11,037 bases of DNA from an uncultured bacterium (GCA_964510165.1 CAZEBC010000133.1:1-11037), one strand, 5' to 3'. Shown: positions 11 through 10,546, numbered from the stretch's first letter. Program-made: numbers and translations. The notes: a model not told the origin generated them from the sequence alone.

Positions 11-39
11 TTGACTTTTCCGGCGATGGAAAATATAAT
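11..39 (+). promoter_or_regulatory. sigma70-type promoter of the kinase-Clp/FHA/Zn-finger/rhomboid operon
   Basis: TTGACT (11-16), 17-nt spacer, TATAAT (34-39). A7 tract at 3-9 is UP-element-like. Lies ~50 nt upstream of a GTG start that has a purine-rich RBS. Confidence 0.8.
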
Positions 40-88
40 TTTCGGTAGCCGCATTCTCCACCCAACTCGGAAAGAGGGGGTAATCTCC

Positions 89-2260
89 GTGTTCGACCCC
101 GGCCTGTGGATAGAGGACCAATACCTGGTGCTCGAACGACACCGCGGCCGACGCTGGATTCTGTATGTAGTTCAAGACCGCATATCGGAAACCCTGTTCG
201 CCGTCAAGGCGCCTGCATTTGTCCTGAGCCCCGACACCGCCGCGCGATTCATTCGCAAGGCCAAGAACTGGATCAACCTGGGCGAATGCGAGCAACTGGC
301 TAATGCCTATCTGCTGAAAGAATTCAACTCCGTTCCGCATCTCCTTGTCGAGTACGCCGATGGCCCAAGCCTCGCCGACATCCTCAGCTCGCATCCGGGA
401 CGAGCGCTGCCGATACGCCAGACCGTCGCCTTCATGAGACAACTCATCAGCGGGATGAAGTTCCTCCATAAGGTAAGCCTCCCCGGCGAGAGTCACGGCG
501 CGATCCATGGCAATCTGACCCCGCGCAATATCCTGACCAAGGCCGGGAACATCAAGATTACCGATATCGGCATGGCGGACGCCCTGCGGCGGCCGACCAT
601 TACAAGCGCAGACCTTCTCCCCGGAGAGGCCCTCTATACGGCGCCCGAGCGACTCGAGAAATCCGCCAAAGCAAGCGAATTGACCGATGTCTACTCCTTC
701 GGAGCCGTCATGTACGAGGTCGCGACGGGCACCGTGCCGAAGACTTGTCAGAGTTCGTCTGATCCGCTCTGCGAAATCGTGAGCATCTCGATCGCATCCC
801 CTCGCATGCGCAATCGCTCGTGCCCCCGCTGGCTCGAAGAGATGATCATGAAGTGTATGGCCCCGGAGCCTGAAAAGAGGTTTCAGAGCTTCGAACAGAT
901 TGACGCCTTCCTTCGCGAGGTCGTCAATACGGACGAGCTTCCCCCCGACGACGGAGCCGGCAAGGAACCGCCGAAGACCTCGCGCGTTGCGCGTATACGC
1001 GGCGCGGCCAAGAAGGAATCGCGGCGCCTCGAGCACTATTACCTCGGCGTCGAACATCTGATGCTCGGCCTCATAGAAGAAGAAGAAAGCGTAGTCGTGA
1101 GCTGTCTTGGAGACGCCGTCAGTGCCGACCAGCTTCAGTCCGAGATCATTTCCTGGCTCCCCAAGGGCGAGGGCCCCTGGTATTGGGAGGGCATAAGAAA
1201 GACTCCGCGCTACAAGAAGGTCATGCGAATAGCCCGCAAGATCAAGCGCGGCCTCGAAGAGGACCGTATGCTGCCCCAACACATCCTTCTGGCAATACTC
1301 GAGGAAGGCCGCAACATCCCCGCTCGAGTCCTCAAGAACCTTAAGGTGGACGTGAAGGCCGCATCCGCCAGCCTGCGCCGAGAGCTGCGCCGCAACCGCC
1401 CGGCGGTTTTCGTCAAGGACGCTGACTCGCCCGCCGCAGTCTGCACCTGCCGGGTGACGTGCACAACGGGCATCCCCGGCAACATCCCCTATGTCGGCCA
1501 TGACGCGGAACTCCGGATGGTCGAAAGCCTCCTGCTCGACGATAAAAAGAGCATCATGCTCATCGGAGAGCCGGGTGTCGGCAAGACGGCCTTCCTGAGG
1601 AACCTCGATTGCATAATTTCAGACACGGTGACCAAGACCGGCGCGGAATACGGAGGCATCCATCGCCTGCGCAATGCCGCCCTCCTGGCAACTTCCGAAC
1701 GGGAAGACGACGTGTTCTCGGGCCTGTCGAATGTGTTGAAATCGCTGGTTGAATCGAAGGCGGTGCTCGTGATAGAGGACCTGCCCGTGATGCTCGACCC
1801 GGGTATCAGAGTGTCCCCACTTGACCTGTCGGCCTTGCTCAGCAACTACGTCGTCTCAAGAGGCCTGCTGCTGGTCGCTACGGCCACGCCCGCCGCGTAC
1901 CTGGCATGTGAATCCGGTCACAGAAACCTCCTTGACTTCCTCGAGGTGGTCCGCTTGCCCGAACCGTCGGAGGAAGAACTCACCCAGATACTCTCCTCCG
2001 CGCGGGAGGTGCTGGAATCGGAGTATTCGGTAAAGGTCGTTGACGAAGCCCTTGTCGCGGCCGCCGCGTTCTCCCGTGACATTAAGGACCGCGCGCAGCC
2101 AGCCAAAGCGCTCGAATTGCTTGAACTCGCCTGCGCCTCCGCCAGGAGGTCGTCATCCAAGTACTCGACGGGAGCAATCCTCGTTAATGCGAAACACCTG
2201 GAGGACTCGTGCTCGGAGTATTTCAAGATAGCCTCGACTCCGAGTCGGGAATCTGAATAA
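89..2260 (+). CDS. Ser/Thr protein kinase-like (probable pseudokinase) / Clp N-terminal double repeat / single degenerate ClpA-B-type AAA+ fusion protein, ~723 aa
   Basis: Kinase motifs: FAVK (197-208), HGNLTPRNIL (from 506), KITDIG (554-571), YTAPE, TDVYSFG..YE..TG. Clp-N repeats: HYYLGVEHLMLGL and TPRYKKVM...PQHILLAILEEG. AAA: YVGHDAEL, Walker A GEPGVGKT (1565-1588), EPSEEE, RAQPAKALELL (cf. RFLPDKAIDL). Start moved from TTG 11 to in-frame GTG 89 because AAAGAGGGGG (71-80) precedes it and the upstream starts overlap the promoter. Confidence 0.88.
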   Translation: MFDPGLWIEDQYLVLERHRGRRWILYVVQDRISETLFAVKAPAFVLSPDTAARFIRKAKNWINLGECEQLANAYLLKEFNSVPHLLVEYADGPSLADILSSHPGRALPIRQTVAFMRQLISGMKFLHKVSLPGESHGAIHGNLTPRNILTKAGNIKITDIGMADALRRPTITSADLLPGEALYTAPERLEKSAKASELTDVYSFGAVMYEVATGTVPKTCQSSSDPLCEIVSISIASPRMRNRSCPRWLEEMIMKCMAPEPEKRFQSFEQIDAFLREVVNTDELPPDDGAGKEPPKTSRVARIRGAAKKESRRLEHYYLGVEHLMLGLIEEEESVVVSCLGDAVSADQLQSEIISWLPKGEGPWYWEGIRKTPRYKKVMRIARKIKRGLEEDRMLPQHILLAILEEGRNIPARVLKNLKVDVKAASASLRRELRRNRPAVFVKDADSPAAVCTCRVTCTTGIPGNIPYVGHDAELRMVESLLLDDKKSIMLIGEPGVGKTAFLRNLDCIISDTVTKTGAEYGGIHRLRNAALLATSEREDDVFSGLSNVLKSLVESKAVLVIEDLPVMLDPGIRVSPLDLSALLSNYVVSRGLLLVATATPAAYLACESGHRNLLDFLEVVRLPEPSEEELTQILSSAREVLESEYSVKVVDEALVAAAAFSRDIKDRAQPAKALELLELACASARRSSSKYSTGAILVNAKHLEDSCSEYFKIASTPSRESE

Positions 2261-2269
2261 AGGCCCCAT

Positions 2270-2602
2270 ATGCCCGAAAGCGAGAAAATAGTCGTCGAGA
2301 TCATGAACGGCCCCGAAGACGGGCGAACCATTTCCTGCCAGGAATTCCCGATTACAATCGGGAGGGCCACCGACAACGTCGTTCATCTGCCCTACGACCA
2401 CCTGATTTCACGCTACCATGCCAGGGTTCTGAGGTCGGAAGGTCAAATCCTTCTCCACGACCTCAACAGCACCAATGGCACCTACATAGGAAAACGGAGG
2501 ATTTACGATGAGACGCCGGTCGAGGCCTATCGAATATTTCGCGTCGGCTCAACTCACCTCATGCTGAAACGCGGCTCCGCAAAGCAAAGCCTGAAGGAAT
2601 AG
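2270..2602 (+). CDS. FHA domain-containing protein (110 aa)
   Basis: Canonical FHA motifs ITIGRATDN, ISRYHAR and DLNSTNGTYI. 9 nt after the stop of the preceding gene. Confidence 0.93.
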   Translation: MPESEKIVVEIMNGPEDGRTISCQEFPITIGRATDNVVHLPYDHLISRYHARVLRSEGQILLHDLNSTNGTYIGKRRIYDETPVEAYRIFRVGSTHLMLKRGSAKQSLKE

Positions 2603-2615
2603 CCGGCGAACGCCA

Positions 2616-4418
2616 ATGAGCAAGAGAACCGAAAAGGCTGCCCACGAATCGCAGGAGTACCGCCGCAAGGTGCCGTGCGTCAATCACCACAAGATTGTCG
2701 CGGTCACCCGTTGTGAGGTCTGCGGCAACCCCATCTGCCGGGAGTGCATCAAATATTATGAAGGCGCCCTCATCTGCAGCGCCGAATGCCTGGTCAAGAA
2801 GACCTCCGAACAAGAGGGACGCATCTCCGCCGATGATAGACATCAGCGAAAGGTGCGGGAGCGAAAGCTTGACCGGGCCGTGACCATAGGATTGTGGTCC
2901 GCTCTGGGCTTGGTCCTCGCCGCTGTCGGTATATTCGTATACCTGAAAATGACAGACCAGTCCGGCGAGAAAATGTGGGAGTTCAAGAAGGCCGGCGGTT
3001 ACTTCAGATATTGGGTCAAGCCCGGCATAAACACCCTCTTTCTCCTTTCCGACGAGGGTACCCTCGACGCCGTCGATTCGCTGACCGGCGTGCCGAGTTG
3101 GAGCGCCAAGTTCAAAAAGGGCAAAGGGTCAGGCCGCGCGCTCGTCATCGATGCCGCGCGCTGCCTTGTATACTTCTCGGACACTGTTCTCCTTTGCCAG
3201 GAGGAGCATGGCGATCCCGTCTGGAAGTTCGATGTGCCAAAGCCCCCGCTGTCAGCCACACCCGCCTTCCTGAACGAGCGCGTGTACCTCGCAAGCTGCC
3301 CCAGCGACTTGTCTTACGAGAGCTTCGATTATCTCTCGTGGCAGTCGTCGCCCCCTGAAAAGGAGGGGGATGAAGGGGAATACTCGGTTGTGACCGCCGT
3401 TGACATGAGCTCCGGCCAGGAACTCTGGAGCATCGAGCTGAAGGATATCCGAATCAGCGCCCTGCTCGCCGCCGACCACGGCCTGTACGCCGTCGGTTAC
3501 AAGTTCTCGGACTACAGCCGATACCGCTATCTGCGCTCCAGGGAGCGAACTCCATTAAGCGAAGAGGGGGACGCTGATGAGAAGGAAGAGCTCCCGTCAC
3601 AACTCCATCTGTGGGCGCTTGACCTCGCCTCCGGCGAGCCGAAGTGGAGAATCGAAGGCACGGGCGATTTCGCCGCCGCGCCAAGAACGACCGAGCGCGG
3701 CATCGTGTTCTCCACCACACAGAATGTGTACCTTATCTCGCAAGATGGGACATCCAAATGGAAATATCCGCTCATGGACAAGCTCGTATACGCGATCGAG
3801 CCATCCGCAACGGACCTCTTCGTCTCCACAGACGACGGCTTCCTCAACTGCATTGACCTGGATTCCGGCAAATGGAAATGGATGTCTCACGTCGGGACCG
3901 GCGCGTTCAAGATCGTGCCATCTCCTCCTCTGGTGTTCGTATCCGGATGGGTGAAGAAATATCAGGATGAAGAGGACGAAATGCAGTTCACCGCCACAAA
4001 ACGGGCGCAGGGCGTCGAGGACCTGCTCGAGGAGACCATGAGGCCCTTCGACGACACCTACGAGAGGGTGCTTTACGGCATCAATATCGAGTCCGGCGAG
4101 AAACTCTGGTCAGTCCCGAAAATAACGGGAGATTTTCAATTCGCTCAGGGAAGGCTTTACGCGCTCAGATACTTCGAGTGGATGCAACTACTGGACGCCA
4201 CCGTCGACCCGTCACAGTTGGCAAAGCGCGTCTCGAACCTCGGCGCCTATGACCCCCTCACCGGCGAAAGAGTCTGGGAGTCCGGCATAGAAGGACATGT
4301 CTCGGACCTCGCCTTGACCGATTACGCCGCTATCGTGACCGCCCGGGAGGATGTCTTCAGCATCGCGGGCGGTCAACAACCCAGAGAGGTCCGGCTGATC
4401 GGGATTTCGCTCCGGTAG
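2616..4418 (+). CDS. Membrane-anchored protein: B-box-like Zn finger + single TM helix + PQQ-like (BamB-type) beta-propeller
   Basis: C-x2-H-x8-C-x2-C-x4-C-x2-C-x9-C-x3-C at 2676-2789. Hydrophobic helix AVTIGLWSALGLVLAAVGIFVYL (~2877-2945) preceded by basic residues. Repeated PQQ-type blades: AVDSLTGVPSW, AVDMSSGQELW, ALDLASGEPKW, CIDLDSGKWKW, GINIESGEKLW, AYDPLTGERVW. Confidence 0.88.
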   Translation: MSKRTEKAAHESQEYRRKVPCVNHHKIVAVTRCEVCGNPICRECIKYYEGALICSAECLVKKTSEQEGRISADDRHQRKVRERKLDRAVTIGLWSALGLVLAAVGIFVYLKMTDQSGEKMWEFKKAGGYFRYWVKPGINTLFLLSDEGTLDAVDSLTGVPSWSAKFKKGKGSGRALVIDAARCLVYFSDTVLLCQEEHGDPVWKFDVPKPPLSATPAFLNERVYLASCPSDLSYESFDYLSWQSSPPEKEGDEGEYSVVTAVDMSSGQELWSIELKDIRISALLAADHGLYAVGYKFSDYSRYRYLRSRERTPLSEEGDADEKEELPSQLHLWALDLASGEPKWRIEGTGDFAAAPRTTERGIVFSTTQNVYLISQDGTSKWKYPLMDKLVYAIEPSATDLFVSTDDGFLNCIDLDSGKWKWMSHVGTGAFKIVPSPPLVFVSGWVKKYQDEEDEMQFTATKRAQGVEDLLEETMRPFDDTYERVLYGINIESGEKLWSVPKITGDFQFAQGRLYALRYFEWMQLLDATVDPSQLAKRVSNLGAYDPLTGERVWESGIEGHVSDLALTDYAAIVTAREDVFSIAGGQQPREVRLIGISLR

Positions 4419-4428
4419 AATACGCAGC

Positions 4429-5553
4429 ATGCAGAACATGGATGAAAAGGAGCATACGCGCACACACTCCCTCAACCAGCCCCTTGCAAGCCGCGTCACC
4501 GATCTTCTCCAAGGTTTTGCCGTCGTTACAGACTACACCTGCAAAGCGCATCCGAATCGAATTGCCACCGCAGCCTGCGAAGCGTGCGGCGCTGACCTAT
4601 GTGCCGAGTGCTCCTTCATTCGAGGCCGACGCCTTCTGTGTGAGAGATGCCTCGGGACCGTCGGAAAGGCGCTCGGCGGGAGAGGCGCCTCTTCGCTCAT
4701 CACCGCGCTGCTCACCCATCCGCTGTTCGTCGCCCTCGCGCTATCCGTCCTGCTCGGAATAGTCTTCGTTAACTTCGGGGCGTCCCGCCGCCGGGGGCTT
4801 CTCGGTGGCGCCCCCGAAAACGCCATCGCCGCCGAAGAGCAGACGCGACTCAAGATACTGCTCCATGTTCAGAAGGCGGACAGGATCGAGACCTTTGCCG
4901 ACCTCCTGCGCGACAGGGACCGCCTCATTGAGGCCAACCGTCAATACGCGCGTTCAAAAGAGGTTTACGAGTTGCTCATGCGTGAAATAACAGATCGTTG
5001 GGAAAGTAATCTGCTCACCTTGGTCCGCGCCCGCATCCTCGAAAAGATGGGCGAAGCCGACTACGCCGCCGGCCTTTATGAGTCGCTGGCCAACCAGCCC
5101 GGCGAGGACAAGACATATCCCGCGATCGCCGAATATCATCTGGCGAGGCTTCAGGAAGCCCACAATCCCGAGAAGGCCGTCGAAACATACTCGAAGTTCC
5201 TGAAGGACTTCACGTTCGTTCCTGACAACCTCACGCGCGCCCTCAAGGTAATGGGCTCGAGTGAAGGCTCGTATAACTACAAGAGCAGGCTTCAACGACA
5301 CACGCGCACCGCGTTCAACTATAAGAAGGCCGAGGTGGAAGCCCTGCTCCGCCTGGGCCGACTGCTGAGTTCGCTCGGGCGCGCAGGCGAGGCACGGTAC
5401 CGTTTTTCGCTTGCCGCCGACCTGGGCCGCGGGACCGACCTGGGCGACCAGGCGAGCGAGGAACTTGAGAAACTCCGCGCCGCCAGCGCTCCCGCCGAGC
5501 CGGAATCGAAGGAAGAACCGGTTACGGAAGAACTGGTCATAACCCATTTTTGA
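4429..5553 (+). CDS. Membrane-anchored protein: B-box-like Zn finger + TM helix + TPR-like helical repeats
   Basis: C-x2-H-x8-C-x2-C-x4-C-x2-C-x9-C-x2-C at 4540-4650. Hydrophobic helix PLFVALALSVLLGIVFVNF (~4720-4776). TPR-like segments ARILEKMGEADYAAGLYESL, AEYHLARLQE..NPEKAVETYSKFL and ALLRLGRLLSSLGRAGEARYRF. The start could be 4429 or 4438. Confidence 0.83.
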   Translation: MQNMDEKEHTRTHSLNQPLASRVTDLLQGFAVVTDYTCKAHPNRIATAACEACGADLCAECSFIRGRRLLCERCLGTVGKALGGRGASSLITALLTHPLFVALALSVLLGIVFVNFGASRRRGLLGGAPENAIAAEEQTRLKILLHVQKADRIETFADLLRDRDRLIEANRQYARSKEVYELLMREITDRWESNLLTLVRARILEKMGEADYAAGLYESLANQPGEDKTYPAIAEYHLARLQEAHNPEKAVETYSKFLKDFTFVPDNLTRALKVMGSSEGSYNYKSRLQRHTRTAFNYKKAEVEALLRLGRLLSSLGRAGEARYRFSLAADLGRGTDLGDQASEELEKLRAASAPAEPESKEEPVTEELVITHF

Positions 5554-5558
5554 CAACG

Positions 5559-6806
5559 ATGCTGCTTCCCTACAAGATAGAAACCGAGGTTCAGAGATTC
5601 CCGCTCTTCACGTATCTGCTGATAGCGGTCAACGCGGTGGTCTTCATCTACATGCAATTCCTGACCAAAGACGCGCGGGAACTCATTTGGTATTCCTACG
5701 GCTTCTCTCCCGGGCTGGGCGAACCGTTGACGCTATTCACCTCGATGTTCCTTCACGCGGGCTGGCTGCACATCCTCGGCAATATGGAATTCCTGTGGCT
5801 GTTCGGACGCGCGATTGAAGAGCGGCTGAACATGGTCGTCTGTGCCGCGCTCTACTTCGCGGGCGGGGCAGCCGGCGCGCTGCTCCAAGGCAGCCTTACC
5901 CCTGATTACATGACCGACATCCCCTGCATCGGAGCCTCGGCCGCCATCTCGGCAATACTCGGCGCCTACATCATGCTGTATCCATGGGACGAAGTGAGCT
6001 GTCTGTACTTCTCTTTTTCGATGAGGTATGTCGTCCCGATTACGCTCTCCGCCGTCTGGGTGCTCGGCTCGTGGTTCGTGTTTCAGTTCGTGTACGCCCT
6101 GTGGTTCTCCCCACAGGCAGCCGAGGCAAGCGTCGCATATTGGGCGCACATCGGGGGATTCGCCCTCGGCGCAGTCTCGGCCGCGATCATCAAGTATTTC
6201 GCGGCGCTGGGCGGAACGCTCCGGCAGCGCTCGGCGGCAATGGCCCTTGAGCGCGCATCGGACTTGAGGCGGCAGGGAATGACCGCCGAGGCCGAGGCGA
6301 AGCTGAGGGCGGCGATCGCGGGCTCGCCCAACAACGCCCTCGTCCTCGCGGAACTCGGCCGGCTGGAACTCCTCAAGGATAATCGCAGCCCGGCCCGCAA
6401 GCTGCTCCGCCGCTCGCTGAAGGAGGCCCTGGAACGAAAGCAGCCGGCAAAGGCAATCGGCGCCTTTTACGCGCTCAAGGCGGCGGGTCAGAGGCCGCCC
6501 GACAATGCGCTTCGGCTCACCCTGGGCCGCAGGTTCATACAACTGAAGAAGTACGGCCACGCGCTCGGCGTCATGGCCGAGCCGTTCCGAAAACAGACGA
6601 GCAAGTCCGAAGTCGAACTCGAAGGCCTCGACAAGCTGCTCTATGAGATTGCCGACCTTTTCGCCGGACCGCTTCAGGACCCCACGCGCGCCCAGGCAGC
6701 CTTCGGCGTCCTGCAACAACTCTTCCCGCAATCCCCGCGCAGCCTCGACGCCGAATACAAGCTTCGTGGACTCCGCGCCAAGGGCAAGGGTGCGCTTGGC
6801 GGATGA
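5559..6806 (+). CDS. Rhomboid family intramembrane serine protease with C-terminal TPR-like extension (~415 aa)
   Basis: TSMFLHAGWLHILGNM (HxxxN motif), catalytic Ser in IGASA (5937-5939), catalytic His in YWAHIGGF (6147-6149), several TM helices, helical TPR-like C-terminus (PNNALVLAELGRL..., FPQSPRS). ATG 5559 preferred over TTG 5550. Confidence 0.92.
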   Translation: MLLPYKIETEVQRFPLFTYLLIAVNAVVFIYMQFLTKDARELIWYSYGFSPGLGEPLTLFTSMFLHAGWLHILGNMEFLWLFGRAIEERLNMVVCAALYFAGGAAGALLQGSLTPDYMTDIPCIGASAAISAILGAYIMLYPWDEVSCLYFSFSMRYVVPITLSAVWVLGSWFVFQFVYALWFSPQAAEASVAYWAHIGGFALGAVSAAIIKYFAALGGTLRQRSAAMALERASDLRRQGMTAEAEAKLRAAIAGSPNNALVLAELGRLELLKDNRSPARKLLRRSLKEALERKQPAKAIGAFYALKAAGQRPPDNALRLTLGRRFIQLKKYGHALGVMAEPFRKQTSKSEVELEGLDKLLYEIADLFAGPLQDPTRAQAAFGVLQQLFPQSPRSLDAEYKLRGLRAKGKGALGG

Positions 6807-6826: not shown

Positions 6827-6856
6827 TTGACGAATGCCAGCCCGTTCCCTTATGAT
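6827..6856 (+). promoter_or_regulatory. Putative sigma70 promoter for the CocE/NonD hydrolase
   Basis: TTGACG (6827-6832), 18-nt spacer, TATGAT (6851-6856), in the only sizeable intergenic gap of the + strand block. RBS GAGGAG at 6887-6892. Confidence 0.55.
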
Positions 6857-6899
6857 TCTTGAACACTCCGCTTCCATTCCCGCAACGAGGAGATGCATC

Positions 6900-8807
6900 A
6901 TGAGCGCAGCCATCTTTCGAAAATTCACGCTCCTAAGGCTTTTCACTATTTGCGTCTTGCTGGTCGCGGTGGCCGCTGGCGTTCCGGCACCCGCCGCGGG
7001 CGAATTCACGCAGGAAAAGGTCTGCGCACCCGGCCAATACCAGGGATATTCATTCCCGAAATATGACGGAATCGAAACCACTTCGTTTTACCTCACCATG
7101 CGCGACGGCGTGAAGATCGCCGTGGACCTGCATCTGCCAAAGGGACTCAAGGACGGCGAGAAACTTCCGACCATTTTGTTTCAAACACGGTACGTGCGTT
7201 CGCTCGATTACCGCTGGCCGTTCAGCGCGTTCTCCGACATGTCGCCCGAATCTGGAAAGGCGATCAAGCTGTTCGTGCCGCGAGGATACGCCTGGGTGGA
7301 CGTTGACGTGCGCGGCTCGGGCGCGTCGTTCGGAACCCGGCCCTACCCATGGTCTCCCGACGAGGTGAAGGACGGCGGCGAGATAGTCGATTGGATCATC
7401 CGACAGCCGTGGTCCGACGGAACGGTCGGCTCGCTCGGATGGTCCTACACCGGCTCGACCAGCGAATTCCTGCTCGTCAACAATCACCCCGCCGTCAAGG
7501 CGGTCGCGCCACGGTTCGCCTTGTTCGATGCCTACACCGACATCGCGTATCCCGGCGGCATCCATCTCGCATGGTTCACCGAAACCTGGGCCTGGGTGAA
7601 CCGCACGCTCGACCGTAACGCGATGAAGGAATTCGGCTTCATGCCCTGGCTCTCTGTAAGAGGAACGAGGCCAGTGGACGCAGACAAGGACCGCTCCATG
7701 CTCGCCGCCGCCATCAAAGAACACGAGGCGAACACGAGCGTGCATGAGCAATCCCTCGGCATGCAGTTTCGCGACGACATCTCGCCGTCCGGGCTCGGCA
7801 CGATCGACGCCTTCAGCCCACATGCCTTCCTCGACAAGCTCAATTCCTCCGGCGCGGCGGTGTACAGCTTCTCCGGCTGGTACGACGGCGCCTATCAGCA
7901 CGCCGCCATCAAGCGATACCTGAACCTGACTGTGCCGCAGAAGCTTACCATCGGGCCGTGGGATCACAGCATTGAGATTCGCCCGTGGTGGCCCAACGCG
8001 CAGAAGCCTGAGTTCGACTTCAACGCCGAAATGCTCAGGTTCTTCGATTACCACCTCAAGGGAATCGAGAACGGCGTGATGACCGAAAAGCCGATCCATT
8101 ACTACACGCTTGTCGAGGAAAAATGGAAAGAGGCCGACGCCTGGCCGCCAGCGTCCCAGCCCACCGTGTATTACTTCTCCGAGGACAACACGCTTGCGGG
8201 CGAAAAGCCCGAGGCCTCCGACGCATTCGACACTTATGTCGTGGATTACACCACCGGCACTCGCCTGCATTCGCGCTGGGTGTCACTCGTCAATATGGAC
8301 GGGACACCGATCGTGTATGAAGGCAGAATGGAGGAAGACAAGAAACTGCTGTGCTACACCTCAGCCCCGCTCGAACAAGACACCGAGGTGACCGGCCACC
8401 CCATCGTCACGCTCTATGTGTCCTCAACGCATGATGACGGCAACTTCTTCGCCTATCTTGAGGACGTTCACCCCGACGGTCAAGTCACCTACATCACCGA
8501 GGGCCAACTGCGCGCGCTCCATCGCAAGCTGAGCGTCGAGTCACCCCCGTACAAAGACGTCGTGCCGTACCACAGCTTCAAGCGCAACGACGCCATGCCG
8601 CTTGTCCCCGGCGAAGTCGCCGAACTCACATTCGATCTGTTGCCCACCTCGTACCTATTCAAGAAGGGGCACTCGATACGAGTAGCCATCGCCGGCGCGG
8701 ACAAGGACCACTTCACCCTCATGAAGACCGATCCCCCGCCGACCCTGAAATTCTATCGAAGCGAAGCATACGCATCATCTATACAGTTGTCGGTGATACC
8801 AAGATAG
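6900..8807 (+). CDS. CocE/NonD family hydrolase (alpha/beta hydrolase, X-Pro dipeptidyl-peptidase S15-like), with probable signal peptide
   Basis: MRDGVKIAVD, DVRGSGASFG, nucleophile elbow GWSYTG (Ser 7443-7445), GWYD, GPWDH triad motifs, C-terminal PepX_C-like region (YTSAPL...VTGHP; FKKGHSIRVAI). ATG 6900 follows GAGGAG and begins a basic + hydrophobic + Ala-x-Ala-type signal peptide. Confidence 0.93.
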   Translation: MSAAIFRKFTLLRLFTICVLLVAVAAGVPAPAAGEFTQEKVCAPGQYQGYSFPKYDGIETTSFYLTMRDGVKIAVDLHLPKGLKDGEKLPTILFQTRYVRSLDYRWPFSAFSDMSPESGKAIKLFVPRGYAWVDVDVRGSGASFGTRPYPWSPDEVKDGGEIVDWIIRQPWSDGTVGSLGWSYTGSTSEFLLVNNHPAVKAVAPRFALFDAYTDIAYPGGIHLAWFTETWAWVNRTLDRNAMKEFGFMPWLSVRGTRPVDADKDRSMLAAAIKEHEANTSVHEQSLGMQFRDDISPSGLGTIDAFSPHAFLDKLNSSGAAVYSFSGWYDGAYQHAAIKRYLNLTVPQKLTIGPWDHSIEIRPWWPNAQKPEFDFNAEMLRFFDYHLKGIENGVMTEKPIHYYTLVEEKWKEADAWPPASQPTVYYFSEDNTLAGEKPEASDAFDTYVVDYTTGTRLHSRWVSLVNMDGTPIVYEGRMEEDKKLLCYTSAPLEQDTEVTGHPIVTLYVSSTHDDGNFFAYLEDVHPDGQVTYITEGQLRALHRKLSVESPPYKDVVPYHSFKRNDAMPLVPGEVAELTFDLLPTSYLFKKGHSIRVAIAGADKDHFTLMKTDPPPTLKFYRSEAYASSIQLSVIPR

Positions 8808-8819
8808 AGCGAGGGCACA

Positions 8820-9187
8820 ATGAACACCAGACCATACCTCATAATCCTCGCCGTCCCGTTCGGACTGATGATAGTCAGCGGAATCCTCGGCGTTGGCTAG
8901 AATCATCCGAGACCTTGACGCGGGACAGCATCGGCTCGAAAGGGGTCATGATGGTGAAGCTGTTCTACCTCGGCCTGTTCTTTCTCGCCGCGTTCGCGGC
9001 GGTTCCGCTCATCCTCCATATGTTTATCGCCGGGCAGATCAGAATCGGCAACGGCGAAGTGTTCATCATCAAATGGCTTCAGGCGCACGAGCGTATGGTG
9101 GTCTATTGCGCGTGGGGATTCTTCGCGCTGGGCGTCGGAATAGCCTTTTCACTGGCCAGGAACGATATTCTGCAGCAACTGAAATAA
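8820..9187 (+). pseudogene. Small multi-TM hypothetical membrane protein, apparently split by a 1-nt deletion (~122 aa if repaired)
   Basis: ATG 8820 with GAGGG upstream gives MNTRPYLIILAVPFGLMIVSGILGVG* (stop at 8900). Adding one base at ~8893 (GGC GT- TGG CTA GAA) joins it to the frame of 8915..9187: ...ILGxWLESSETLTRDSIGSKGVMMVKLFYLGLFF... Confidence 0.6.
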
Positions 9188-9394: not shown

Positions 9395-10546
9395 CTAGAA
9401 CGTCGGGCCCTGCTTGAGGTAGTTGAACGGGACCGAACGGTTTATCTCGGCGCAGGTGCGCCTGCCAGCGGCGACCTCGAGCGCGAGATCGAAAATCTCC
9501 CGGCCCACCTCTTGGATGGTCCTGCCCTCGTCAATCACCGTGCCTGCGTTCACGTCCATGTCGCCCGGCATCTTATTGTAAGTCGTCGAGTTGCTGGAGA
9601 CCTTGACGACGGGGACCGCCGGAAAGCCCGCGGTCGAGCCTCTTCCCGTGGTGAAGAGGATTATCTGCGCTCCAGCGGCAGCCATGCCGGCCATCGAGTC
9701 GATATCGTAGCCGGGTGTGTCCATCACGACGAATCCGCGCCTTGAGGGTCGGCCCGCGTATTCGATCACTTCGGTTATCGCCGTGGTGCCCCCCTTGGTT
9801 ATGCAGCCGAGCGATTTCTCCGTTATGGACGAAAGCCCGCCCTCGATGTTGCCGGGCGCGATCACCATTCCCGCCAATGCGCCCAGCGTCTCGCGCACGC
9901 GCTTCTCGTGCTCGTTCACCAGGCATTCCATCTGCTTGCCGAGATCGGGGTTGGCACAGCGGCGTTTCAGGATGTGGGCGGTCCCGATCATCTCGGTCGT
10001 CTCCGAAAGGATCACTGTGCCGCCCTGGGCCACGAACAGGTCGGCAGCCGCCCCGACGCTCGGGTTTGCGGTGACGCCGGAGAACGCATCCGAACCTCCG
10101 CACTCGAGCCCGACTACCAACTCGCTCACCGGCACGGGCTCGCGCTTTTGCGCCGCGAGTTGCTCCAGGAACCTTCCCGCAATCTCGATGCCCTTGCCAG
10201 TCGTCGCCCGGCTCCCGCCGGACTCCTGTATGACGAGTGCCTCGACGGGCTTGTCCTCCGCCATCTGTGTCAGGTACGAACTGTTGAGAGCCTCGCAGCC
10301 AAGACCGATCACAAGCACGGCGCCGACGTTGGGGTTGTTGATCAGGCCGCCGAGGGTGCGAATGCTGACACCGATATCGTCGGGAGTATAGCCGCAGCCG
10401 TACCCATGCGTGACCGCCACGACATCGGGTAGCGCGCGCCCTATTGCGTCTACGACTCCATTTGCGCACGCGACCGAAGACACCACGAGCACGTGGTTGC
10501 GAACACCAACCTTCCCGCCCTCGCGTTTATATCCGAGAAATTCCAT
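9395..10546 (-). CDS. UxaA/GarD/SuyB family dehydratase or sulfo-lyase, large (catalytic) subunit lacking the SAF domain
   Basis: Begins MEFLGYKREGGKVGVRNHV. Motifs HGYGC, NPNVGAVLVIGLGCE, GLECGGSD, NPSVG, SETTEMIG, PGNIEGGLSSITEKSLG, FTTGRG. RBS GGAGG on the minus strand at 10556-10560. The substrate cannot be assigned from sequence. Confidence 0.92.
   Translation of the reverse strand: MEFLGYKREGGKVGVRNHVLVVSSVACANGVVDAIGRALPDVVAVTHGYGCGYTPDDIGVSIRTLGGLINNPNVGAVLVIGLGCEALNSSYLTQMAEDKPVEALVIQESGGSRATTGKGIEIAGRFLEQLAAQKREPVPVSELVVGLECGGSDAFSGVTANPSVGAAADLFVAQGGTVILSETTEMIGTAHILKRRCANPDLGKQMECLVNEHEKRVRETLGALAGMVIAPGNIEGGLSSITEKSLGCITKGGTTAITEVIEYAGRPSRRGFVVMDTPGYDIDSMAGMAAAGAQIILFTTGRGSTAGFPAVPVVKVSSNSTTYNKMPGDMDVNAGTVIDEGRTIQEVGREIFDLALEVAAGRRTCAEINRSVPFNYLKQGPTF

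Follow-up and report, generated by a model that had tools for sequence, protein, structure and literature searches.

The subject of this report is a compact operon of five genes in an 11,037-nucleotide stretch of DNA from an uncultured bacterium (GCA_964510165.1 CAZEBC010000133.1:1-11037), a stretch that we call the window throughout and on whose full length all coordinates are counted. All five open reading frames (ORFs) lie on the + strand and encode, in order, a putative pseudokinase fused to a Clp N-domain and a degenerate AAA+ module (ORF1), a small FHA protein (ORF2), two single-pass membrane proteins, each bearing a B-box-type zinc finger (ORF3 and ORF4) and a rhomboid-type protease with a TPR domain (ORF5). 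Our tentative reading, held with somewhat less than even confidence, is that the products would form an active rhomboid complex, one subunit of which comes in trans, and that this complex would be linked to a non-catalytic, phosphothreonine-reading scaffold. The evidence lies in the conservation of the gene order and promoter, in the catalytic residues kept in ORF5 and lost in ORF1, and in a model in which the tail of ORF4 docks on ORF5.

A five-gene operon with conserved order and promoter

The five genes span positions 89-6806 and are separated by gaps of 9, 13, 10 and 5 nucleotides (nt), counting ORF5 from its ATG at 5559; with the alternative start, TTG at 5550, ORF5 would overlap the end of ORF4 by 4 nt. 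An earlier reading of the window, made from the sequence alone (the sequence-only reading), had proposed a bounded operon of five close-packed genes behind a strong promoter, and both proposals hold, with gene order and front promoter conserved in relatives. Namely, the sigma-70-type site at 11-39 matches the consensus at 11 of 12 positions, and a match of the same quality (TTGACT-17/18-TATAAT) stands 43-51 nt before the start of ORF1 in all nine loci compared, that is, the window and eight relatives. In the alignment of these promoters TTGACTT and AATATAAT are invariant, while the flanking bases have diverged. It should be noted that the promoter scan of the window was overall at chance level (5 sites against 3.3 +/- 1.7 in shuffles); the site at 11-39 is accepted despite this because it is conserved in 9/9 loci at a similar distance from the start. 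The sequence-only reading had also begun its region at position 11, which is no start codon: the TTG listed there belongs to the -35 box, and ORF1 begins, in frame, at GTG 89, preceded by AGAGGGGG. Of 26 ORF1 homologues in the alignment, 25 have their conserved N-terminus (M/V-F-x-x-G) at this start; P0026 is the exception, being shorter. A promoter-like site had further been expected behind the rhomboid gene, and one is present there with 10 of 12 positions matching, although the scan that returned it was itself at chance level. The window scan gave no terminator-like site on the + strand after 6806, and an Rfam search gave no match.

In a protein search with ORF1, its own cluster is joined by about 28 further ones in which kinase, Clp_N and lid are combined in the same way; they are 45-80% identical to the query and cover at least 82% of it. 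After these, the matches fall sharply to ordinary ClpC (at most 30% identity over about half of the query). The named relatives belong to Candidatus Abyssubacteria/Abyssobacteria and Hydrogenedentota, with the one exception of a record titled Candidatus Poribacteria; NCBI places the class Abyssobacteria in the phylum Hydrogenedentota. The operon is lineage-specific and restricted to an uncultured bacterial class. Species-representative genomes were scanned with the ORF1 alignment as well, whereby 216 stretches matched the pattern, 190 of them encode relatives and 80 loci were kept. About 60 of these 80 are ordinary ClpA-like genes of ~758 amino acids (aa), picked up through the N-domain motif and irrelevant here, and eight (L001-L008) hold full-length ORF1 homologues at 48-57% identity. 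By tblastn with the window proteins, seven of the eight (L001-L006 and L008) carry all five genes with order and strand kept, at identities of 52-57% for ORF2, 39-46% for ORF3, 44-52% for ORF4 and 57-62% for ORF5. The order has thus been retained although the proteins are only 35-62% identical, an arrangement far beyond chance expectation. The homologues are not scattered, as they would be in a chance neighbourhood, and we therefore regard the cluster as real.

With the rhomboid as query, 26 further clusters of full-length rhomboid-TPR proteins come up at 50-83% identity, and three more full-length matches at 33-36%, all remaining matches being short rhomboids of about 235 aa. The ORF1 and rhomboid-TPR families are thus of like size (about 28 and 26 further clusters), and several pairs have longest contigs of equal size. 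By tblastn, homologues of ORF6 and ORF7 occur in none of the eight related loci, and the genes downstream of the cluster are never conserved. In the relatives the operon is flanked by housekeeping genes (PHP, CstA, biotin carboxylase, TetR/MMPL), with no mobile-element genes in those flanks scanned with Pfam. A divergent PHP-domain gene lies directly upstream of the operon in five of the eight loci (e.g. L001:9076-9825(-) and L004:8996-9703(-)), and a 208-aa protein is likewise encoded upstream in five of the eight (L004:8373-8999(-)), for which Pfam gives no significant match and, in L004, a single GspD_N0 hit below threshold; the window does not reach far enough upstream to show either gene.

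The five proteins and their catalytic residues

Pfam, with NCBIfam in agreement, recovers the domains that the sequence-only reading had named for all five ORFs. ORF5 has the six-transmembrane (TM) core of a rhomboid serine protease, with HxxxN in TM2, GxSx in TM4 and a His in TM6, which appear as WLHILGN (H71, N75), GASAA (S127) and AHIGG (H197). All 30 aligned rhomboid-TPR sequences have N75, S127 and H197, and nearly all have H71; the codon that had been pointed out at 5937 is TCG, encoding Ser127 in GASAA. Judged by these residues, ORF5 should be catalytically intact, in agreement with its earlier description as a rhomboid-TPR protease. Six-TM rhomboids of the GlpG type have an N-in/C-in topology, with the N-terminus in the cytoplasm, and the rhomboid active site faces the periplasm. 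ORF5 has six hydrophobic segments, including the HxxxN helix, with 12 residues before TM1 and no such segment after residue 216; since its TPR domain follows TM6 directly, with no seventh TM, this domain should lie on the same side as the N-terminus and would be cytoplasmic. The N-terminal globular domain and the extra TM of YqgP/GluP-type rhomboids are absent. ORF5 is no rhombosortase of the GlyGly-CTERM type either (TIGR03902, 16.6 bits against a cut-off of 84), and ORF3 and ORF4, which end in ...IGISLR and ...ITHF, both lack a C-terminal TM.

ORF4 and ORF5 were chosen as a pair for complex prediction because they are absent together in one of the eight related loci (L007). ORF5 (alignment of 30 rows) was modelled with residues 1-135 of ORF4 (9 rows), and the complex reached an interface score (ipSAE) of 0.79 (runs 0.79, 0.71 and 0.79) against 0.12 for the best control. 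The mark passed is reached by 58 of 80 solved complexes and by 2 of 110 mismatched pairs, counts that hold only roughly here, as our own alignments were used. At least 89% of contacts recur between runs, and the partner has a predicted local distance difference test value (pLDDT) of at least 80. On the ORF5 side the modelled interface is made by residues 223-388, which all belong to the TPR domain, and on the ORF4 side by residues 12-69, which comprise its DLL...VTEY segment and finger; the tightest pairs link G333, H334, L336 and G337 of ORF5 to V32, V33 and T34 of ORF4. The TM of ORF4 makes no confident contacts in the model, with the rhomboid core or otherwise. The contact between a zinc finger and the rhomboid TPR domain that the sequence-only reading had proposed has thus passed a controlled complex prediction for ORF4, and the model supports docking of the ORF4 B-box tail on the ORF5 TPR domain.

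ORF3 and ORF4 were described earlier as two single-pass proteins with a cytoplasmic zinc finger in common, which the alignments support. The putative finger of ORF4, C-x2-H-x8-C-x2-C-x4-C-x2-C-x9-C-x2-C, is invariant in 9 of 9 sequences, and eight Cys/His ligands of like pattern are invariant in 8 of 8 sequences of ORF3. The Pfam zf-B_box scores of the window proteins (21.5 and 18.1 bits) fall under the cut-off of 24.1, which many relatives exceed, and the predicted finger region in the AlphaFold2 (AF2) model of ORF4 has a pLDDT of about 60-67. Between the two tails only a 24-residue finger core is common (42% identity, E 5e-5), and ORF3 is without the DLL...VTEY segment, which forms half of the modelled ORF4 interface. 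The TM of ORF3 is flanked by 6 K/R before and 3 after, and the flanking charges of ORF4 are ambiguous. We infer an N-in/C-out orientation for both proteins, for ORF3 from the position of the finger and the K/R bias, and for ORF4 from the position of the finger and the modelled contact with a cytoplasmic TPR domain; the propeller of the former and the TPR-like domain of the latter would then be periplasmic. Both TMs contain conserved Gly residues, and that of ORF4 an invariant Pro at its cytoplasmic end.

The AF2 model of ORF4 has a mean pLDDT of 72, with residues 130-353 of the ectodomain folded as confident helical repeats, for which Foldseek returned LapB, YfgM and BamD at E 1e-4 to 2e-3. 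A functional lead from this fold was dropped, the matches being generic TPR proteins with query-normalised TM-scores of at most 0.36 and ESM Atlas scores below 0.9. The C-terminal ITHF of ORF4 is preceded by an acidic linker and followed, in some copies, by one extra D/E. A HMMER search of 1.84 billion representatives with the ORF4 profile gives 184 proteins at E <= 1e-3; at the stricter limits of <= 1e-10 and <= 1e-30 the number falls to 12 and 6. Of the 150 relatives listed, 64 were selected for a match starting in the finger and scanned with Pfam: a B-box match is present in 34 and TPR repeats in 18, the latter suggesting a looser finger-TM-TPR family of about 320-375 aa. Other C-terminal parts found on relatives with this finger are DUF4097/Toastrack (3), Yip1 (2), RDD, an Rce1-like protease and Fib_succ_major. 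In particular, a B-box finger and TM are joined to Toastrack/DUF4097, Yip1, RDD or an Rce1-like CAAX protease in P0299, P0324, P0346, P0316, P0364, P0317 and P0354. Finger plus TM appears, by these architectures, to be a widespread cytoplasmic handle on bacterial membrane proteins, and the passages drawn on here from a survey of Psp envelope-stress systems list the B-box among Toastrack contexts (PMC11237479).

What the rhomboid keeps, ORF1 has largely lost. Aligned with S. aureus PknB (4eqm), its kinase part has HGNlTPrN in place of HRDiKPqN, with the catalytic-loop Lys turned into Thr; it has no glycine-rich loop, and a Lys stands at the alphaC Glu position. Across the ORF1 family the HRD Asp is replaced in 24 of 26 sequences (Asn in 17, Gly in 5, Ser in 1 and Val in 1), all members have the VAIK Lys, and 25 of 26 have the DFG Asp. 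The residues expected of an active Hanks-type Ser/Thr kinase (STK) are not assembled in ORF1, which supports its earlier designation as a pseudokinase fused to a ClpN-AAA part.

The AAA module is degenerate too. The N-domain and D1 of ORF1 align to B. subtilis ClpC (3j3s) across about 400 residues (E 2e-33) with Walker A kept; Walker B, however, has changed from ilfiDElh to vlviEDlp (DE to ED), the pore loop from KYRGEFE to EREDDVF, losing its Tyr, and, in the window copy, the Arg-finger pair from RR to DF. No further domain follows the D1 lid, so that D2 is absent, as are an M-domain, a protease domain and a ClpP-docking module. Within the family, the Walker-B DE occurs in 0 of 26 members and the pore-loop segment is acidic and unconserved; the Walker-A Lys is present in 25 of 26. 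The only member without it is P0002, the closest homologue at 80% identity to ORF1, where Walker A reads GESGVGIT with Ile in place of Lys. Thus ORF1, for all its N-domain and Walker A, falls outside the class I Clp/Hsp100 unfoldases (ClpA/B/C). The Clp N-domain is the best conserved part (mean column identity 0.76, against 0.65 in the pseudokinase and 0.58 in the AAA module). Taken at the level of motifs, ORF1 looks like a probably nucleotide-binding scaffold that would work through the surface of its N-domain, and like neither a kinase nor a threading motor; it is predicted to be soluble.

ORF2 has the Gly-Arg, Ser-x-x-His and Asn-Gly loops of the phosphothreonine-binding FHA domain. Among 13 aligned sequences (nine proteins of the family and four from other phyla), its pocket residues G31, R32, S47, H50, G70 and T71 never vary, T68 is nearly invariant, and N69, as read from the alignment blocks, is kept in 11. 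The pocket is thus intact by sequence, and ORF2 is predicted to be a canonical phosphothreonine-binding FHA protein. What is more, the closest relatives of the Clp part of ORF1 outside its family (L009 from Chloroflexi, L010 and L011 from Ca. Bruticola) have a small FHA gene directly downstream; an FHA gene is also found directly downstream of the Clp gene in L017 and directly upstream of it in L077. These neighbours suggest an old Clp-FHA partnership, which may have gone unrecognised. The loci are L009:4397-7351, L010:9971-13698, L011 (match 10001-11230, FHA hit 13309-13581) and L017:9944-13317. In such loci, from Chloroflexi and Eremiobacterota-type metagenome-assembled genomes, a two-ring Clp ATPase of 863-1145 aa is followed by the small FHA protein; the N-domain motif HYY[LI]GVEH is common to these ATPases and ORF1, and the FHA neighbours are 32-34% identical to ORF2. 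L077:1075-16997 (Acidobacteriaceae) has the look of a conflict island, with kinase-WD40, SIR2_2-TPR, FHA and kinase-TPR genes and a phage-type integrase, and its Clp ATPase is apparently split into a ClpN-D1 ORF and a D2 ORF.

Table 1. Features of the operon and its boundaries in the window
Feature	Residues	Nucleotides	Strand	Basis
Sigma-70-type promoter		11..39	+	TTGACT-17 nt-TATAAT, 11/12 match; same hexamers upstream of ORF1 in 9/9 loci
ORF1, 723 aa, putative pseudokinase + Clp N-domain + degenerate D1		89..2260	+	Pfam; alignments to 4eqm, 3j3s
ORF1 putative pseudokinase	1-285	89-943	+	Pfam Pkinase, E 7e-26
ORF1 Clp N-domain, two repeats	297-432	977-1384	+	Pfam Clp_N, E 8e-18
ORF1 Clp D1-type AAA+ module with lid	471-700	1499-2188	+	Pfam AAA_lid_9, E 9e-9
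ORF2, 110 aa, single FHA domain		2270..2602	+	Pfam FHA, E 3e-14
ORF3, 600 aa, B-box finger + TM + beta-propeller		2616..4418	+	Pfam PQQ_2, zf-B_box
ORF3 B-box-type zinc finger, predicted cytoplasmic	19-58	2670-2789	+	zf-B_box, E 0.003
ORF3 TM	87-114	2874-2957	+	Hydrophobicity
ORF3 PQQ/BamB-like beta-propeller, predicted periplasmic	~120-600		+	PQQ_2, E 6e-20
ORF4, 374 aa, B-box tail + TM + TPR-like domain		4429..5553	+	Alignment, AF2, Foldseek
ORF4 tail, predicted cytoplasmic, DLL motif + B-box finger	12-74	4462-4650	+	Alignment
ORF4 TM with invariant T-H-P	87-120	4687-4788	+	Alignment
ORF4 helical TPR-like domain	130-353	4816-5487	+	AF2, Foldseek, weak Pfam TPR
ORF4 C-terminal ITHF		5539-5550	+	Invariant in 9/9
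ORF5, 415 aa, rhomboid core + TPR domain		5559..6806	+	Pfam Rhomboid, E 2e-27; TPR_19
ORF5 six-TM rhomboid core	13-216	5595-6206	+	Ser127 codon 5937-5939
ORF5 C-terminal TPR domain, predicted cytoplasmic	217-415	6207-6803	+	Position after TM6
Promoter-like site at downstream boundary		6827..6856	+	TTGACG-18-TATGAT, 10/12 match

Downstream of the operon the window holds a hydrolase of the CocE/NonD family (6834-8807, TIGR00976, E 3e-132). Its listed ATG at 6834 falls inside the promoter-like site, and its true start is probably the Met 22 codons later (about nt 6900), where a signal-peptide-like segment begins. Further on lies a UxaA/galactarate-dehydratase-like protein (9395-10546, - strand), which matches positions 107-490 only of TIGR03248, the N-terminal part being missing, and between the two genes a 90-aa ORF with two hydrophobic stretches (8915-9187, + strand).

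Proposed working and its alternatives

We propose that the operon encodes one membrane-associated complex with two sub-modules. In the first, made up of ORF4 and ORF5, the cytoplasmic TPR domain of an active six-TM rhomboid would grip the B-box tail of ORF4, which would thereby equip the enzyme, in trans, with a TPR arm on the periplasmic side, in effect a split form of the YqgP layout. The second would consist of ORF1, ORF2 and ORF3: a scaffold in which the pseudokinase and a non-threading, probably nucleotide-binding D1 flank the Clp N-domain, a phosphothreonine-binding FHA protein, and a second B-box protein with a periplasmic propeller. We treat ORF1-3 as a second sub-module because these genes persist together in L007, because of the Clp-FHA neighbours described above, and because of the precedent of a pseudokinase and FHA domains in a type VIIb secretion system (T7SSb). 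Periplasmic events sensed by the propeller and the TPR arm would control cleavage of a client by the rhomboid, ORF3 or other envelope proteins being candidates, and the ORF1/ORF2 scaffold would read or gate this cleavage in the cytoplasm through phosphothreonine set by a kinase encoded elsewhere. ORF1 itself would perform no kinase and no unfolding work.

Several observations weigh against this proposal. According to the domain scan, the operon encodes no active kinase, phosphatase, transcription factor or other output domain, so that it would supply a phosphothreonine reader with neither writer nor eraser. HGD is present in 2 of the 26 ORF1 homologues, and at the Arg-finger position at least one Arg stands in 10 of 26 and RR in 3 of 26; some members of the family may thus retain residual activity. 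Residues in the modelled ORF4-ORF5 interface are no better conserved than those elsewhere in the two domains (Fisher p 0.56, 1.0 and 1.0), and the AF2 monomer model of ORF5, built from 6 sequences, is poor (mean pLDDT 50). With its invariant TM Pro, ORF4 could be a substrate of the rhomboid and not a subunit. Finally, L007:10001-16014 is a three-gene variant, in which a convergent CstA gene comes right after ORF1-3 and both ORF4 and ORF5 are absent within the 8 kb downstream; ORF1-3 can exist here with no adjacent ORF4-5, and the two modules may be separable in function.

An alternative that we consider unlikely, though worth keeping in mind, is classical regulated intramembrane proteolysis, in which the rhomboid would cut the TM of ORF3, ORF4 or both, and the released tails would be caught by the Clp N-domain and the FHA protein. 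Clp N-domains are established to bind substrates and adaptors, the tail of ORF4 tethers it to the protease in the complex model, and both proteins are single-pass with conserved TM Gly. The invariant TM Pro of ORF4 would fit as well, a TM proline being a substrate hallmark in the passages of PMC7232013 drawn on here; the same passages, however, give rhomboids a preference for N-out/C-in proteins (type I/III), opposite to the predicted N-in/C-out orientation of ORF3 and ORF4 (PMC7232013). In addition, none of the confident contacts in the complex model links the ORF4 TM to the rhomboid core. The Pro lies at the cytoplasmic end of that TM, away from an active site that faces the periplasm. Nor does a sigma-E-type cascade come into view, as no sigma-factor or S2P domain is encoded in the window or in the scanned flanks of L001-L008. 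Because of the opposite orientation and the tail-TPR model, ORF4 looks like a subunit, and ORF3 and ORF4 both look more like subunits than like classical substrates. Of the roles of receptor, substrate or adaptor that had been offered for the two, that of a classical substrate fits their predicted orientation poorly.

Less likely still, in our judgement, is that two independent units are merely co-transcribed, ORF1-3 being a scaffold of an STK pathway and ORF4-5 a housekeeping rhomboid with its adaptor, with no coupling between them. Such an explanation would account for L007, for the larger intergenic gaps of L004 and L008, which sit before ORF4 and/or ORF5, and for SURF_5, whose ORF1 and rhomboid homologues are listed with longest contigs of different size (33,366 and 25,482) and may be unlinked. 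It sits poorly with adjacency in the same order in seven of eight loci at about 50% identity, with one conserved promoter in front of all five genes, with gaps of 10 nt and 5 nt in the window and with the B-box-TM design common to ORF3 and ORF4.

Our own proposal of a coupled complex can be sharpened into a phospho-regulated one, as a bacterial equivalent of rhomboid complexes under phospho-regulation, in which the ORF4 arm, recruiting substrates in the periplasm, would be attached or released at the joint of B-box and TPR domain by a phospho-switch at Thr34, set by a kinase from another locus, with the FHA protein as reader and the doubly dead ORF1 as a nucleotide-sensing platform that ties in ORF3. 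Thr34 of ORF4 is invariant and lies inside the modelled interface. In this specific form the idea is a speculation that we regard as improbable; if true, however, it would be the first bacterial rhomboid controlled by Ser/Thr phosphorylation and a pseudoenzyme scaffold.

The sequence-only reading had further suggested quality control in the manner of endoplasmic-reticulum-associated degradation or of YqgP with FtsH, with ORF1 as the AAA+ extraction motor. A rhomboid with an AAA+ partner has its precedent in YqgP-FtsH (PMC7231995, in the parts used here), and ORF1 does have a Clp N-domain and an intact Walker A. It has, however, a single D1-like module, in a family with Walker-B DE in 0/26, and no D2, protease domain or ClpP-docking module; the KYRGEFE pore loop, with its Tyr, has given way to an acidic, variable segment and the Arg fingers to DF in the window copy, and we hold such a motor to be very improbable. 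An anti-phage or other conflict system, finally, is the most remote of the explanations, as the resemblance of the distant L077 Clp-FHA pair, which stands beside SIR2-TPR, kinase-WD40, kinase-TPR and integrase genes, and the matches of the ORF1 kinase domain to PADLOC kinase models are outweighed by the merely generic kinase nature of those matches, none of which extends to ORF2-5 (0/4) or to a known PADLOC system, by housekeeping and partly syntenic flanks (the PHP gene upstream in 5/8) and by the lack of mobile-element genes in the Pfam-scanned flanks.

Known systems and what the operon may mean

Among the closest known systems is B. subtilis YqgP (GluP), which has an N-terminal cytosolic domain and an extracellular C-terminal TPR domain and acts with FtsH (PMC7231995). 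Shared with it are an active-type rhomboid with TPR and a partner of the AAA+ family, and the likeness extends to a cytosolic regulatory domain and to an adaptor function beside the protease function (PMC7231995). In our case, however, the fused TPR domain would be cytoplasmic and the extracytoplasmic one is found on a separate protein, ORF4, docked by its B-box tail in the model, and the AAA+ partner is a degenerate Clp D1 with no protease in place of FtsH. The analogy with YqgP that had been drawn earlier consequently holds for the combination of rhomboid and TPR and fails for the side of the membrane.

As for the second sub-module, the passages of PMC9600267 drawn on here describe how, in T7SSb, the pseudokinase EssB/YukC contacts the FHA domains of EssC/YukB, so that a bacterial pseudokinase, FHA domains and an ATPase form a membrane-associated hub there too. 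The FHA domains of EssC/YukB are without the phosphothreonine residues and make a phospho-independent contact (PMC9600267), whereas the pocket of ORF2 is intact in 13/13. T7SS genes are absent here, and ORF1 is soluble by prediction. With class I Clp/Hsp100 proteins (ClpC; PDB 3j3s, 6em8) ORF1 shares the N-domain, the large and lid subdomains of D1 and Walker A. It differs from them by the lack of D2, M-domain, pore-loop Tyr and Walker-B Glu and by the added N-terminal pseudokinase. As a Clp-like pseudo-ATPase scaffold it presumably resembles plant SMAX1/D53. In the threonine-phosphorylation pathway of type VI secretion (T6SS), PpkA kinase, Fha and ClpV are encoded together, and our operon likewise combines a kinase fold with FHA and a Clp-family ATPase; here, however, the kinase appears to be dead and is fused to the Clp part, and no other T6SS gene occurs in the window or the eight related loci. 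ORF3 and ORF4, finally, begin like the bacterial B-box-TM-X proteins (e.g. those with Toastrack/DUF4097), with an N-terminal finger and then one TM. The reports on such proteins make no link between the finger and a rhomboid TPR domain.

No named system of this five-gene composition was found in searchable papers or among PADLOC and NCBIfam models, as the sequence-only reading had presumed, and the genomic description of Abyssubacteria makes no mention of rhomboid, kinase, FHA or Clp. We rate the component families as known and the combination, in which rhomboid-centred proteolysis would be joined to signalling of the STK/FHA type, as one that is contained in no paper or model library searched. 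In a 2025 atlas of bacterial STKs, neither Clp nor AAA occurs in the main text, and a full-text literature search for Clp_N together with Pkinase returned 0 papers; among the few known bacterial pseudokinases, fusion to a ClpN and degenerate D1 would be a new architecture. Gene neighbourhoods in several phyla also hint that some Clp ATPases, forming a subgroup, have small FHA proteins as partners. To our knowledge, bacterial rhomboids are nearly universal and few of them have known partners or regulators. In this light, the operon offers a rhomboid with dedicated, genetically linked candidate partners and, in the contact between the ORF4 tail and the ORF5 TPR domain, a docking model that can be mutated.

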